From contig JBILDU010000025.1 in the NCBI GenBank assembly GCA_044352465.1, positions 1 to 34,449 on the forward strand: DNA of 34,449 bases, in the 5' to 3' direction. The notes under the pieces are model-generated. The model did not search any database and was not told where the DNA came from. It saw nothing but the letters and a program-made list of their open reading frames with translations. The translations under genes were made by a program, and so were the position numbers. Each line of letters begins with the position of its first letter. The first letter of the stretch is position 1. Positions 7,450 to 11,869 of this stretch are shown piece by piece. Origin of the DNA: Bdellovibrionota bacterium (lineage in GTDB: Bacteria; Bdellovibrionota_C; UBA2361).

Positions 7450-8043
7450 TTAACACTTCTCCACTTGAATGAAGTCGAGCTCCACCGGAGTCGCTCGCCC
7501 AAAGATGCTGATGAGCACCTTAACCTTCCCTTTCTCAGGCTTAACCTCTTCAACGGTGCCGTTAAATTCCGCGAAAGGCCCATCGATAACCTTGACGGCC
7601 TCCCCCTGCTCAAAGGTCGCCCGGGAGCGCGGCGACGCGGTACCCTCTTCAACTTGATTACGGATCCGCGCCACCTCGTCCTCCGAAAGAGGCTCGGGGC
7701 TCGTCGCATCACCAAGGAATCCCGAAATTTTCGGGGTGTCCTTCACCAAGTGCCACGTGTCCTGGTTCAGCTCCATCTGAACGAGCACGTACCCGGGGAA
7801 GAATTTCCGGTTCGACGTCTTCTTCTGACCCCGAACGAGCTCCACCACGGTTTCCTGAGGCACGTGGATGTCGCCAAACATGTCCGTAAAGTTGTACTGA
7901 CGAATGCGCTCTTCAAGCACCTGCTTCGCCTTCATCTCGAAGCCGGAGTGCGCCTGAACGACGTACCACTTCATCTTTGAAGTGTCCTTACTGAGCGGTG
8001 CTTCCGCCTTCACGCCTTCAGATGTCATATCCTCAGTTGCCAT
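7450..8043 (-). CDS. nusG: transcription termination/antitermination factor NusG
   Basis: [23 protein letters not shown] motif [26 protein letters not shown]. Confidence 0.99.
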
Positions 8044-8089
8044 AGGAATTGGCCCTTACGAGACCACAAATCCAAAAATTCGCTCGCAT

Positions 8090-8305
8090 CTACACGATCG
8101 CCTGCATCAACTTCCCGAAAATCACATCGAGAATGAACAGACAGAGAGACACGAAAACGACGATCACAAGGGTCACCAGCGTTGCCTGAACCGTCTGCTG
8201 CCGCGTCGGGTGGCTGATCTTTTTCAGCTCAGCGATGCTCTCAGAGACGTAACTACGTCCCTTCGCTACGACCGATCCGGTTGACTCAGCGTGTTCAGCA
8301 CTCAT
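8090..8305 (-). CDS. secE: preprotein translocase subunit SecE
   Basis: ELKKISHPTRQQT followed by one TM helix ending LFILD; immediately upstream of nusG; start uncertain (8305 or 8323). Confidence 0.92.
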   Translation of the reverse strand: MSAEHAESTGSVVAKGRSYVSESIAELKKISHPTRQQTVQATLVTLVIVVFVSLCLFILDVIFGKLMQAIV

Positions 8306-8476
8306 AGCGCCCGACTTCGACACAAATAAACCGCCGCCACTCCTAAACTTTGCTCCAAAGAGCAAGATTCCCCGCCCGCACCAAGGTGAAAGTTCTCTCA
8401 CTTGGACACGCTTGCAAACTTCAAAAACGACCTAAGTTCTTGAAAACGTAAGCAATGGCAGAAAATTAGAGCTGGA

Positions 8477-8505
8477 ACACTAGCAAATAACGTTCGCTAG
8501 AGCAA
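8477..8505 (-). promoter_or_regulatory. sigma70-type promoter for secE-nusG
   Basis: TTGCTC - 17 nt - TAGTGT with extended TGn. Confidence 0.5.
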
Positions 8506-8858
8506 ACGGTGGGGGCAAGTTTTTTTGAGATAACTCAACCTAGCAGGTTTATCAAAAGTTACCTCGATAAACTTTGCACAGGCGGCTCGCCGTCACCTCA
8601 GGCAGCAAACCGAAGCGCAACTCATCGAAACAACAAGGCGCCTCTGCTGAGGCTCGCTCGCGTCGGGCCTTACGGAACGCGAAAAAGCCGCGCCGACTGT
8701 CTTTTAGGGGCCTTTCCGTTCGACTCTCCGAGGCTTAGCCAGCATGACCTGGCACCTCCCGACGAGACAACGCGAGTCGACACCGCAGAGAGTTCAAAAA
8801 GAGCCGCACGACATGAAATAAGAATTTTTGGGCCACATGAACATCACCGCACTCACCT

Positions 8859-9043
8859 TCCCGCCTCCGGCGGGAACTGGGTTCGCTTCCCTCCGGGAGG
8901 TGACTCGCAACTTTGAGGGTAATTGGCACGCCCGGAGGGAATCGCCGCGCTAGCCTCTCCCGCCTCCGGCGGGAACTGGGTTCGCTTCCCTCCGGGAGGT
9001 GACTCGCAACTTTGAGGGTAATTGGCACGCCCGGAGGGAATCG
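8859..9043 (-). repeat. two identical 86-bp direct repeats (99-bp period) overlapping the tRNA-Trp 3' end
   Basis: 8859-8944 = 8958-9043; each includes the last 21 nt of tRNA-Trp plus 65 nt of trailer. Confidence 0.95.
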
Positions 9044-9098
9044 AACCCCCAACCAACGGATTTGGAATCCGCTACTCTACCAATTGAGCTACGGGCGT
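9023..9098 (-). tRNA. tRNA-Trp(CCA)
   Basis: Cloverleaf; anticodon arm GCGGA-TTCCAAA-TCCGT; GTTCGA T-loop; encoded CCA. Confidence 0.97.
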
Positions 9099-9113
9099 AG
9101 CTTTGAGAAGAAG

Positions 9114-9189
<76 letters not shown>

Positions 9190-9211
9190 GTATACTCACG
9201 ACCGAGTGGGC

Positions 9212-9240
9212 ATTATGTAGAGAAGCAGATCAATTGTAAA
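9212..9240 (-). promoter_or_regulatory. sigma70-type promoter for tRNA-Thr/tRNA-Trp
   Basis: TTTACA - 17 nt - CATAAT, about 22 nt before tRNA-Thr(GGT). Confidence 0.7.
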
Positions 9241-9261
9241 TATTCCGAACGCGCTTGACGC

Positions 9262-9290
9262 TTTACATCCCCAAAAAAAGAAATCATTCT
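9262..9290 (+). promoter_or_regulatory. sigma70-type promoter for tRNA-Thr/Gly/Tyr
   Basis: TTTACA - 17 nt - CATTCT, back-to-back with the minus-strand promoter. Confidence 0.55.
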
Positions 9291-9321
9291 GGGATGGGGT
9301 GGGTCTAAATCCGCGCGATAC

Positions 9322-9394
9322 GCTGGCATAGCTCAACTGGTAGAGCAGCTGATTTGTAATCAGCAGGTTATGGGTTCAAGTCCCGTTGCCAGCT
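9322..9394 (+). tRNA. tRNA-Thr(TGT)
   Basis: Anticodon arm GCTGA-TTTGTAA-TCAGC; GTTCAA T-loop; CCA not encoded. Confidence 0.96.
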
Positions 9395-9430
9395 TTGATT
9401 TTAACTGATACTCCTTACCGCTCCTCGATT

Positions 9431-9678
9431 CTCGAATCGCTAGCGCGATTCGAGGGGTGCATCAGCCTCGTCAAGCTTGCAGCTTGAACGGCTGATGGAC
9501 CGAAGAGGTAACTCTTGAGTTCACCGGATGCGGGAGTAGCTCAGTTGGCCCCTTTTATGCTCGAATCGCTGGCGCAATTCGAGGGGTGCATCAGCCTCGT
9601 CAAGCTTGCAGCTTGAACGGCTGATGGACCGAAGAGGTAACTCTGAAGTTCACCGGATGCGGGAGTAGCTCAGTTGGC
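9431..9678 (+). repeat. two 119-bp direct repeats (129-bp period) overlapping the tRNA-Gly 5' end
   Basis: 9431-9549 vs 9560-9678, 4 mismatches; each ends with the first 20 nt of tRNA-Gly. Confidence 0.95.
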
Positions 9679-9735
9679 TAGAGCATCAGCCTTCCAAGCT
9701 GAGGGTCGCGAGTTCGAGTCTCGTCTCCCGCTCCA
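9659..9735 (+). tRNA. tRNA-Gly(TCC)
   Basis: Anticodon arm TCAGC-CTTCCAA-GCTGA; encoded CCA. Confidence 0.97.
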
Positions 9736-9847
9736 TTTTCTCCCTCGATATTTGGATTTGAGGGCGGTTTTGGAGTAGCATCCGAAGCGTTCAAAGATCC
9801 TCGCGCTAGCCACGCGAGGGAAGCGCACATTCTTACGGTATTCTTGC

Positions 9848-9930
9848 GGTGAGGTGCCCGAGTGGCTAAAGGGGGCAGACTGTAAATCTGCTGGCTTACG
9901 CCTACGGGGGTTCGAATCCCTCCCTCACCA
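9848..9930 (+). tRNA. tRNA-Tyr(GTA)
   Basis: Anticodon arm GCAGA-CTGTAAA-TCTGC, long variable arm, acceptor stem GGTGAGG/CCTCACC; CCA not encoded. Confidence 0.96.
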
Positions 9931-10026
9931 ATTCTTTCCTTTCGCTTCTCTACTCTATTTATTTTTTTCTCTCTCTCTTTTTCTCTCTCTTTGCACCCTC
10001 CTGTTTCTTTTTTCATTTTTTCTCTC
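9931..10026 (+). repeat. low-complexity polypyrimidine tract
   Basis: About 95 nt of mostly T/C, with (CT)n and T runs. Confidence 0.8.
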
Positions 10027-10327
10027 GTATCAATCGTATCCGTCCCTCAATACCCAGCTGTTCCGCTGCAGCTGGAAATGAAGATTGGCGAAATCTCGCA
10101 ACCTACAATTTTTGCCTGCGTTTTATGTTAACTTGATGAGCGTGATCCGAGCGGCGAAGTACTAGCTTTTTTCTCTTCGGCTCCGAGCTCCGTTCGACTT
10201 ACTTAGGCGAACGCTCGACTCGACTGATGTCCGAAAGAGCCTCTCTTTCGGGAATATCCATACGGTCTTGCCCAAGGCGCTTAGCTGACACACGGCCGCC
10301 CCCTCTCGTCCTGACCGGATCGGCAAA

Positions 10328-11869
10328 TCAAGACGCGGCGTGCCGCTCCTGGCGAGCCGCCGCGCGTCGGCGGGGGGTTGCTCGTGAGCCGGGTCCAGGA
10401 GCTTTTGCCGCATCTCGGATCTCGTGGGGGAGATAATCGACCTGCCCGACCCGGGCAAAATCGACGTAAAACGATTGCGCCACCTCGCTCGCCCGAAATT
10501 CTCGCGTTGTCGTGAGATGTCGCCACAGCTCGAGGGTGAGATTTTGCAACGCGATGCCGTGACGACGGCCCACCCGGGAAAATAGCTCATCGCTGAACGC
10601 CATAAACGCGGCAAACGGGGAGCTACCACCTCGCCAGAGGAGCCGAACCGTCTCAGTAAAACGCCCGCTATTGGCGATGAGGTCCCAATACTTGGCGAAT
10701 CGGCGCATCCGCTGCAGCTCCTCAAACGAGATGTGCGCGGTCGAAAGCACCTCGTACGGCGCGTGCGCAGCGTAGACCATCTGGAAAGCCTCATCATGCC
10801 GGCTGATCGGTGTGCCGCGCAGCCGCTTCAGTATCCCGACCTGAATCTCGTGTGGCTCGAGTGCGACGAGGCGATCGAACCCCGCAGCGAAACTCGCTAC
10901 GTTTTCTCCAGGCAGTCCCACGATGAGATCCGCGTGGATATACACCCCGGTTTCCTTCCTGAGAAACGTCAGGTTCTCTTCGATCTTCGCGTAATCCTGC
11001 CGTCGACTGATGTGACCACTCACTTCGGGGTTGAAGGTCTGAATACCGACCTCAAACTGGAGCGCCCCCGGCGGGAAACGCTTAATCGAATCGCGGAGCG
11101 CCGCCGGGAGTCTATCGGGCACCATCTCGAAATGGACGAAAAGCTCCGGGGTATATCGCTCCCAAAAGAAGTCGAGGATCGCTTTCGCGGTCCGGATATT
11201 GAGATTAAAGGTCCGGTCGACGAACTTAAAGGTGCGCGCTCCACGTCGATACAACCCGTCCATATGGGCCAAAAACGGTTCGAGCGGGAAGGCCCGGACG
11301 GGAATATCTAAGGACGATAAGCAGAACTCGCACGTAAAGGGACATCCCCGCGAAGCCTCAACGTAAATGATTCGTTTCGCGACATCATCGGCGGCATAGA
11401 GATCGTACGGCAGCGCCACCTCCTCGAGCTTCGGCACCGGACTACGAATTACTCTTTCGCTCGGCGGATGACCGGAGAGGATCGCGGCGCAGAGAGTTGG
11501 CAGGGTGAGGTCTGCTTCGCCCGTCACAACGAAGTCCGCGAGGTGCGTAATGCGCTGCGCTTCGATCTCGAAGCTAACTTCGGGCCCACCCAGGACGATG
11601 ACGGTGTCAGGTAAAATTCGCTTCAGGAGGAGCACCAGTTCCTCCGTCTCGGTAACGTTCCAGATATAAACACCGAGCCCGATAATCCGCGGGGAGAGCT
11701 GTCGCAGTTCATCCGCGATATCGAGGACATCTTGGTTGGTATTAAATTCACGAACGACCGCACGCGACTGGAGCTCACCCAGGTTAGCGTAGAGATAGCG
11801 TAACCCAAATGCAGCGTGGATGTACTTGGCGTTCAACGTAGCGAGTACGATGTCGGTCGACACGGGCAC
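10328..11869 (-). CDS. B12-binding radical SAM protein (DUF4080-type)
   Basis: LNAKYIH, GVYIWN, VLGGPEVS, EASRGCPFTCEFCLSS (CxxxCxxC), KFVDRTFN, HADLIVGLPGE. Confidence 0.92.
   Translation of the reverse strand: MPVSTDIVLATLNAKYIHAAFGLRYLYANLGELQSRAVVREFNTNQDVLDIADELRQLSPRIIGLGVYIWNVTETEELVLLLKRILPDTVIVLGGPEVSFEIEAQRITHLADFVVTGEADLTLPTLCAAILSGHPPSERVIRSPVPKLEEVALPYDLYAADDVAKRIIYVEASRGCPFTCEFCLSSLDIPVRAFPLEPFLAHMDGLYRRGARTFKFVDRTFNLNIRTAKAILDFFWERYTPELFVHFEMVPDRLPAALRDSIKRFPPGALQFEVGIQTFNPEVSGHISRRQDYAKIEENLTFLRKETGVYIHADLIVGLPGENVASFAAGFDRLVALEPHEIQVGILKRLRGTPISRHDEAFQMVYAAHAPYEVLSTAHISFEELQRMRRFAKYWDLIANSGRFTETVRLLWRGGSSPFAAFMAFSDELFSRVGRRHGIALQNLTLELWRHLTTTREFRASEVAQSFYVDFARVGQVDYLPHEIRDAAKAPGPGSRATPRRRAAARQERHAAS

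Follow-up and report, generated by a model that had tools for sequence, protein, structure and literature searches.

A tandem repeat with an inverted T arm behind tRNA-Trp in a Bdellovibrionota genome, and related tRNA-linked modules across its order

Why would a tRNA gene be followed by inverted copies of its own T arm and by a direct copy of its own 3' end? The question is raised by the tRNA-Trp(CCA) gene in contig JBILDU010000025.1 of the Bdellovibrionota genome assembly GCA_044352465.1 (GTDB lineage Bdellovibrionota_C; UBA2361), which was analysed over its full length of 34,449 nt (hereafter, the window). The array behind this gene appears to be a tRNA-linked repeat cassette that arose, and changes its copy number, at the level of DNA, a reading to which we assign a probability of roughly 0.55. 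We infer that the cause lies in DNA rather than in RNA because the arms of the cassette copy the adjacent gene, the units are identical within arrays and their number changes, the presence of the cassette is patchy even within a genus, the cores are alike across different tRNAs of one genome, and units of this kind in Escherichia coli can sit behind terminators.

The tRNA-Trp array and its turnover

The array is built on an exact 86-nt direct repeat with a spacing of 99 nt (positions 8958-9043 and 8859-8944), the only direct-repeat family reported, in which each copy consists of the last 21 nt of tRNA-Trp followed by 65 nt of trailer. Tandem Repeats Finder (TRF) describes the array as 1.9 copies of a 99-nt period with 100% matches. 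On the transcript, a unit runs through a 26-nt trailer, a 19-nt segment antisense to the T arm (the anti-arm), three bases, a 17-nt hairpin, a 13-nt spacer and a 21-nt copy of the tRNA 3' end (the decoy). Both anti-arms (8879-8897 and 8978-8996) are 19-nt inverted matches, 95% complementary (18/19), to positions 9030-9048 inside the tRNA gene. They span the break point of the direct copy, such that nt 51-55 of the tRNA are covered by the anti-arm and missing from the decoy. With up to two mismatches allowed, the antisense 19-mer occurs three times in the window; the expectation from 100 dinucleotide-preserving shuffles is 0.01, and none of the shuffles reached three. The repeat search, TRF and the shuffles thus confirm the exact 86-bp duplication with its 18/19 anti-arm and GGA-loop hairpin that had been described in an initial annotation made from the sequence alone. 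No further copy of the 86-nt unit is found in the 3.13-Mb genome to which it belongs, and no terminator was seen, within the window, in the trailer. In Rfam scans of window positions 8000-10500 and of eight module loci, tRNA was the sole model above the gathering score; the borderline matches of this model to partial copies located upstream of tRNA genes are pseudo-tRNAs. The 13-nt spacer has the word CTAGCGCG in common with the leader module of tRNA-Gly in the same window, which is described below.

A collapsed or falsely duplicated repeat, a possibility already considered in the initial annotation, could be suspected given that the window comes from a 170-contig metagenome bin and that a sister array breaks a contig. 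The tandem order is proven solely by the 73-nt junction 8915-8987, in which the 13-nt spacer joins the end of one unit to the start of another. Four lake-water metagenome runs (X1-X4), each from a different study, supplied contigs that were aligned to positions 8600-9300; the junction is present as a separate 73-nt contig in X1, X2 and X3, and in X4 a single 129-nt contig covers 8859-8987. Because this unique junction is found in four runs from four studies, the tandem duplication of the tRNA-Trp trailer is real, and an assembly artefact is left with next to no probability. In X1, X2 and X3, respectively, the junction (depth 52, 30 and 35) and the unit (65, 45 and 47) exceed the depth of the unique flank (10.9, 8.1 and 11.9) three- to sixfold, and the depths in X4 (6.4 vs 7.2) fit two units; all these values are per-contig means that possibly include close relatives, so that the ratios are indicative only. 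It follows from the depth ratios that the two units of the assembly are a minimum, the natural arrays in X1-X3 probably containing more than two, and that the copy number probably differs between populations.

Turnover is also apparent from the comparison of the genome of the window (G000) with a sister species of the same genus (G001). The tRNA-Trp of G001 is identical (76/76 nt), no such trailer is present downstream of it, and the conserved secE leader starts ~35 nt after the tRNA; in our reading, these 35 nt contain a weak terminator-like stem with a T-run. In G000, this place is taken by ~480 nt, made up of the 198-nt array and a remainder, after which secE and nusG follow in both species. 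G001 has instead a module of the 5' type (see below) in front of tRNA-Trp, and decayed copies are present in two other genomes (G002 and G020). The difference between G001 and G000 indicates that modules are gained and lost within a genus. The features of the locus are listed in Table 1.

Table 1. Features of the tRNA-Trp locus and its downstream neighbourhood, with window positions
Feature	Positions	Strand	Basis or remark
tRNA-Thr(GGT), first gene of the Thr-Trp unit	9114..9189	(-)	ARAGORN; Rfam tRNA 70.6 bits
tRNA-Trp(CCA), CCA encoded	9023..9098	(-)	ARAGORN and Rfam
tRNA-Trp nt 56-76, first 21 nt of the proximal repeat copy	9023-9043	(-)	repeat search
Trailer copy 1, 26 nt	8997..9022	(-)	anti-arm starts at +27
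Anti-arm 1, antisense to tRNA-Trp nt 51-69, 18/19	8978..8996	(-)	repeat search, shuffles
Hairpin 1, 7 bp, GGA loop, at the position of the covarying hairpin of relatives	8958..8974	(-)	
13-nt spacer, sole unique sequence separating both 86-nt copies	8945..8957	(-)	
Decoy, direct copy of tRNA-Trp nt 56-76, T-loop to CCA	8924..8944	(-)	
Trailer copy 2	8898..8923	(-)	repeat search
Anti-arm 2	8879..8897	(-)	repeat search, shuffles
Hairpin 2	8859..8875	(-)	
Remainder of the ~480-nt block from tRNA-Trp to the secE leader, absent in the sister species	8541..8858	(-)	pairwise alignment
secE, next gene downstream	8090..8401	(-)	Pfam SecE 63.6 bits
nusG, after secE	7450-8043		Pfam NusG 94.3 bits
rplK, after nusG			L11 domains (Pfam)

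Beyond the second unit, the block 8541-8858 (~280-320 nt) contains GCGAGC-type words like those of the module hairpins, has no counterpart in the sister species and is otherwise unexplained. The ~40 nt that directly follow the second unit, which form the first part of this block, look like a decayed spacer and decoy.

Modules at other tRNA genes of the genome and the order

The 44 tRNAs of G000 were scored by the best inverted match of their last 32 nt within 300 nt downstream. Five of them (Trp, Ser-GGA, Ser-GCT, Ser-CGA and Pro-GGG) score 28-33 and the other 39 no more than 20; the score of Ser-GCT stems from the array of the adjacent gene. Behind tRNA-Ser(GGA) there are three units of 77 nt, and behind tRNA-Ser(CGA) at least three of 78 nt that run off the contig (C127, 8600-8850 and 10238-10458, locus L044). 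In each of these units, the trailer precedes the T arm in inverted form, a short loop and a copy of the 3' end that matches the unit's own tRNA. The Ser palindrome has, in its centre, the words CCCGCCG and GAGGCGG in common with the Trp hairpin. An 18-nt copy of the 3' end of Ser-CGA is located at position 45 of another contig (C16); the Ser-CGA array probably broke the assembly between these two contigs.

A mirror-image 5' form is found in the same genome, where nt 1-46 of tRNA-Val(TAC) are copied exactly ~180 nt upstream of the gene, followed by hairpins and then by a segment antisense to nt 40-51 (contig C80, 7611-7790, locus L043). In the window, a module of the 5' type precedes tRNA-Gly(TCC) at 9431-9678 (+) and consists of two 129-nt tandem units with 96% matches. 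Within it, nt 1-20 of tRNA-Gly are copied at 9530-9549, T-loop-like words make up a perfect 10-bp hairpin (TAGC loop), and the anticodon arm is copied in sense and antisense (9459-9497 and 9588-9626). Modules of the 5' type were also observed at tRNA-Trp in four relatives (L011, L015, L025 and L028). These combine an exact copy of tRNA nt 1-46, two hairpins, the second with the conserved loop GAGCNRGCGA, and a segment antisense to nt 40-51; the upstream copy in L025 is a near full-length pseudo-tRNA with an ~87-nt insert in the variable region.

Among 30 tRNA-Trp loci from 30 genomes of the order (G000 included), seven have an inverted T-arm match downstream and six a direct copy of the 3' end downstream; a 46-nt copy of the tRNA 5' part is present upstream in three loci, and one more has partial copies. 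Searches with patterns of two types extend the comparison beyond tRNA-Trp. The TTCGATT-type pattern matches 8 of 91 order genomes and 9 of 124 genomes of the phylum, the sole match outside the order presumably being rRNA, and the TTCGAAT-type pattern matches 33 of the 91; the reversed control gave 0/91 in both cases. With the former pattern, the full layout was found behind tRNA-Leu(TAA) in G008, and a locus with no tRNA in G052. With the latter, 19 of 30 loci examined sit 21-81 nt behind a sense tRNA, four are chance matches in antisense tRNA genes, and seven lack a called tRNA; in five of these seven, a 3' end resembling that of a tRNA is visible where the contig breaks off. Ten further loci all proved to be modules behind tRNAs (10/10). 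At least one module is thus present in ~33 of the 91 order genomes, two of which are unclear, a count obtained after the removal of three genomes with chance matches only and the addition of three found with the first pattern only. The modules are associated with 13 isoacceptors (Trp, Leu-TAA, Ser-CGA/GCT/GGA/TGA, Arg-ACG/CCG/TCT, Cys, Met, Tyr and Asp), besides which there is a Gly-like module at a contig start. Unit length across the order is 77-150 nt, and the longest array has at least seven units (L100). The Ser loci of G001-G004 show a match in only two of the four genomes.

The common part of these modules comprises, in this order, a trailer, the anti-arm, an optional hairpin, an A-rich spacer of 11-15 nt, the 3' half of the T-loop, a second optional hairpin that sits inside the copy of the T-stem 3' strand, the tRNA 3' end and again a trailer. 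The anti-arm has a GAACC end and reaches to a variable extent into the acceptor strand, and the first optional hairpin (7-9 bp) has a loop of GGA, GAA, GTA or a G-first tetraloop. The inverted match was scored against the last 34 nt of each tRNA within 250 nt. It is exact over 11-23 nt of the tRNA's own 3' end in 43 of the 75 tRNAs in module loci and covers no more than 8 nt in the other 32; the lower bound of 11 nt is imposed by the search pattern, and the informative part is the extension into tRNA-specific stems. In L036, the anti-arm copies a lineage-specific acceptor over 20 nt, and in L016 it follows a T-loop variant. In relatives, too, the anti-arm thus tracks the sequence of the tRNA, a covariation that the initial annotation had named as a check, and it is always the local tRNA that is matched. 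Module cores at different tRNAs of one genome are alike, as seen in G005 (Trp, Ser and Gly-like) and in G000 (Trp and Ser).

The GGAG-loop version was sought in one genome each of 185,579 species and was found in 26 loci, only four of which adjoin a tRNA. These four, with the titles Bdellovibrionota, Oligoflexia, Bdellovibrionales and 'Candidatus Dadabacteria', all belong to this lineage. At the other GGAG-loop loci, no tRNA was called within 600 nt, and the seven Paenibacillaceae matches share a conserved stretch that we take to be coding. In a metagenome-assembled genome titled Rickettsiales (L066, 601-650), antisense and sense T-arm words surround a hairpin, with no tRNA called within 600 nt; this palindrome may represent an element of this kind outside the present lineage. 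A small hairpin whose centre resembles GAAGCTTTAGCGAAG (or CTAGCGAAG) recurs in L090, L146, L013, L028, L141 and L142, its sites being trailers, module cores and various positions inside pseudo-tRNA copies, and may be a repetitive extragenic palindromic (REP)-like element of the order's own. The gene order and orientation of Thr, Gly, Tyr, Thr and Trp around tRNA-Trp vary widely between order genomes (L010-L039), which makes the tRNA-Trp cluster a rearrangement hot spot.

DNA or RNA as the level of cause

A function at the RNA level would assign to the co-transcribed trailer the role of a folding or processing switch, a 3' exonuclease barrier, a processing stem or a source of an RtT-like small RNA (sRNA). 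As proposed in the initial annotation, the precursor can form a duplex of T arm and anti-arm that competes with the cloverleaf. The predicted duplex is better than the enforced cloverleaf by 15 kcal/mol for 121 nt, 10.6 kcal/mol for 175 nt and 16 kcal/mol for the whole array. With the decoys included, the duplex is 11-16 kcal/mol ahead on paper, in a nearest-neighbour model that has no folding kinetics and takes no account of the order of folding during transcription, of tertiary contacts or of modifications, three factors that each favour the cloverleaf. The z-score of whole-region folding is -4.4. The orientation of the modules is always sense and their position always within the tRNA unit, hairpin positions are kept and their stems differ, the loops start with G on the sense strand, and no terminator separates the tRNA from the array. 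In E. coli, rttR is one repeat unit of the tyrT operon, and one tyrT unit yields the RtT RNA, as stated in PMC3318445, which cites Bosl and Kersten 1991 for the RNA.

Other tests do not favour selection on the RNA. Folding favours the sense over the antisense strand in only 20 of 46 units (Wilcoxon p = 0.17), and G-U pairs number 74 of 1336 on the former vs 137 of 1447 on the latter; the entries kept in this strand test include five real tRNA genes read antisense. Wobble pairs, accordingly, give no sign of selection on sense RNA. The cassette is absent from the sister species with an identical tRNA and from 23 of the 30 tRNA-Trp loci, its copy number appears variable, some copies are decayed, and several E. 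coli units lie behind strong terminators. The stretch was found in DNA runs only; the RNA runs that came up were two from soil, with a word share of 0.06. On balance, a function at the RNA level is possible but unlikely. The dedicated switch controlling the maturation of tRNA-Trp, to which the initial annotation had ascribed the anti-arm, is the least supported part of that earlier interpretation: the anti-T arm is carried by only seven of the 30 tRNA-Trp loci and is missing behind an identical tRNA in the sister species, the layout is found behind 13 isoacceptors, and the number of copies varies between populations. Such a switch is unsupported, and what survives is the other option offered there, the footprint of a tiny tRNA-targeting element, which is close to the cassette reading.

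The repeats of E. coli K-12 are informative with regard to transcription. The units of tyrT-tyrV-rttR are 178 nt long, and the last 19 nt of each are copied from the 3' end of tRNA-Tyr. Each also has, ~60 nt behind the tRNA, an anti-arm of 22 nt, in which the stems match the T arm and the loop reads TGAGAA. Related units are located behind proK, serX, the lysT operon, valU-lysV and the argV operon. The stems of the anti-arm agree with the tRNA at Pro and Ser, and at Lys the agreement is exact over 13 nt; at the arg operon, the anti-arm was not detected at the threshold used. The E. coli repeats had been cited in the initial annotation as tRNA-linked repeats in which a built-in anti-T arm is not known; this has to be corrected, K-12 having one at tyrT, proK, serX and the lysine tRNAs. 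The constant core of the K-12 units is rich in GNA-loop hairpins. At proK, serX, lysQ and lysV, the duplicated trailer includes the intrinsic terminator of the tRNA; the units there lie behind terminators, which argues against a need for transcription at these loci. In RefSeq, such units bear the label 'RtT sRNA', and as many as four are annotated at serX. Depending on the E. coli genome, this locus is ~238 to 924 nt long, with 1 to 18 query-matching places per genome, and in E. coli 536 it consists of a truncated single unit, with no empty site.

Under the DNA-level reading, the cassette would be a foldback with both arms copied from the adjacent tRNA gene, and the anti-arm would be one arm of the cassette palindrome, not a regulator of tRNA-Trp. 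Cassettes would be gained and lost at tRNA genes, arrays would grow or shrink by slippage or by unequal recombination between the tRNA 3' end and the decoy copies, and the arms would stay matched to the tRNA through repeated re-copying from it. Candidate routes for the first arrival of a cassette are recombination in the T-loop and template switching at the T-arm hairpin. The idea that the junction results from a restriction-like cut at TT^CGAA was considered and dropped, since one subfamily keeps the entire T-loop in the decoy.

Several observations weigh against this reading. It cannot explain two things, namely the origin of the first unit and the fixed positions of the hairpins. No recombinase, transposase or autonomous copy was found for the modules, and the alignment of G000 with G001 shows the ~480-nt difference with no shared edges and no clean empty site. 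The first optional hairpin has a fixed position and a stem sequence that is different in every lineage, which could mean selection for structure; the stem differences were read from match tables, the pair counts of one alignment (A1) having been dropped because MAFFT moved the hairpin register in three of seven rows. Among 34 distinct perfect module hairpins, cGNAg occurs eight times and the reverse cTNCg never, compared with 40 and 39 of 4442 in the genome background, and several of the eight are related by descent and not independent. This strand bias of the loops implies that the tRNA-sense strand matters in single-stranded form, which fits either RNA or the non-template strand of DNA. Trailers across the order show no terminator in our reading, so that the arrays are probably transcribed with the tRNA. 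The modules at Ser-CGA and Cys recur across families, which could mean long retention, and the groups among the 75 tRNAs are partly defined by the search pattern itself.

A bolder proposition is that tRNA-linked repeats are pan-bacterial, protein-less, self-programming cassettes, or else that their transcripts are dedicated antisense partners of single tRNAs; we consider it quite unlikely. A self-programming cassette would copy the target T arm both ways on arrival, probably via a single-stranded foldback intermediate of the tRNA-sense strand. If true, this would be an unrecognised mode of site-specific mobility, with the E. coli RtT repeats and the modules of this order as members.

Relation to known elements and repeats

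In integrative elements at tRNA genes, the attL/attR crossover lies in the T-loop or in the anticodon loop, which define the sublocation classes. The modules share with these elements a regenerated tRNA and a displaced 3' fragment that starts in the T-loop, arranged as direct repeats, and the mirror-image 5' form, in which tRNA nt 1-46 or 1-20 are copied upstream, counts as a further likeness. The modules could accordingly be relics of integrase-driven islands or prophages, in which case the decoy would be the displaced tRNA 3' end (the attR core), produced by a crossover in the T-loop, and the interior would have been deleted. The decoys indeed run from the T-loop to CCA, like att identity blocks at tRNA genes, and PMC9897764 states that partial tRNA genes commonly arise through the integration of genetic elements. 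Unlike integrative elements, however, the tRNA-Trp array has only 78 nt between the tRNA end and the decoy, with chance open reading frames only, no integrase and no cargo, and every unit contains an inverted copy that spans the break point. The compact layout of anti-arm and hairpin is present in dozens of loci, which independent deletions would not yield, and the identity of the units within an array points to tandem duplications, not to serial integration of different elements. An origin from islands is thus decidedly improbable.

REP sequences and bacterial interspersed mosaic elements (BIMEs) are, like the modules, small, non-coding hairpins of alternating orientation that occur in tandem and in variable copy number. 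A REP-associated tyrosine transposase (RAYT) could conceivably spread the modules by taking the T arm for a hairpin of its own, insofar as the tandem hairpins alternate in orientation as in BIMEs and the genome has three RAYT-like Y1 transposase genes (~325-331 aa; contigs C3, C109 and C164, loci L040-L042). Unlike REPs, the units are not dispersed, are built from the adjacent tRNA and are unrelated to the repeats at the RAYT genes. Two of these genes are flanked by a GTAG-type repeat and the third by another one, neither of which resembles the modules, and perfect hairpins with a GGAG loop number 0 of 404 genome-wide. A link to REP and RAYT was therefore rejected as hardly credible. The GTAG-tagged repeat at the two RAYT genes is the commonest 13-mer of the genome, with 41 copies. 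Integron attC sites were dropped as well, the GTT/AAC boxes, by our own reading, not being at the right places.

Knowledge of the tyrT repeats of E. coli dates back to the 1970s, and there is no consensus on their origin or role; the term 'TLR' is in use for such repeats. A literature search whose scope did not include the original tyrT papers found no account of bacterial tRNA-linked repeats beyond remarks on rttR/tyrT, nor of their antisense arm. In a preprint (10.1101/2024.07.17.603846), the tyrT-rttR region has raised coverage in exonuclease-resistant DNA under stress. The modules described here have small units of 77-150 nt, are associated with 13 isoacceptors and occur in about one third of the order genomes, which makes the class easier to dissect. 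The essential parts are evident from the minimal unit: the T arm in inverted form, a short core that is A-rich or a hairpin, and a copy of the 3' end. The many independent loci provide material for the study of junctions of recent gains. At a practical level, such arrays break assemblies at tRNA genes and yield partial tRNA calls.

The E. coli tRNA-linked repeats (tyrT/RtT) resemble the array in most aspects of architecture. In both cases, tandem units lie directly 3' of the tRNA on the same strand, each unit ends in a tRNA copy that starts in the T-loop (18-19 nt in E. coli, 21 nt here), and a segment antisense to the T arm follows the trailer and precedes a hairpin core. The span of the E. 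coli serX locus varies between strains, as the depth of copies does here. By contrast, no homology of sequence or structure to the E. coli units is detectable, and the Rfam RtT model (RF00391) has no match at E up to 1 in the window or in eight module loci. The core consists here of one hairpin and a spacer of 11-13 nt, compared with the constant core of ~70 nt in E. coli, and the anti-arm is a near-exact copy of the T arm whereas that of E. coli has a loop that is altered and the same throughout (TGAGAA). The duplicated trailer of several E. coli units contains a terminator, and none was seen here; the units are 77-150 nt long, compared with 178 nt at tyrT, and the lineage belongs to a different phylum. 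Altogether, we file the array with the known but unexplained tRNA-linked repeats, of which it represents a smaller form in a distant, uncultured freshwater lineage.

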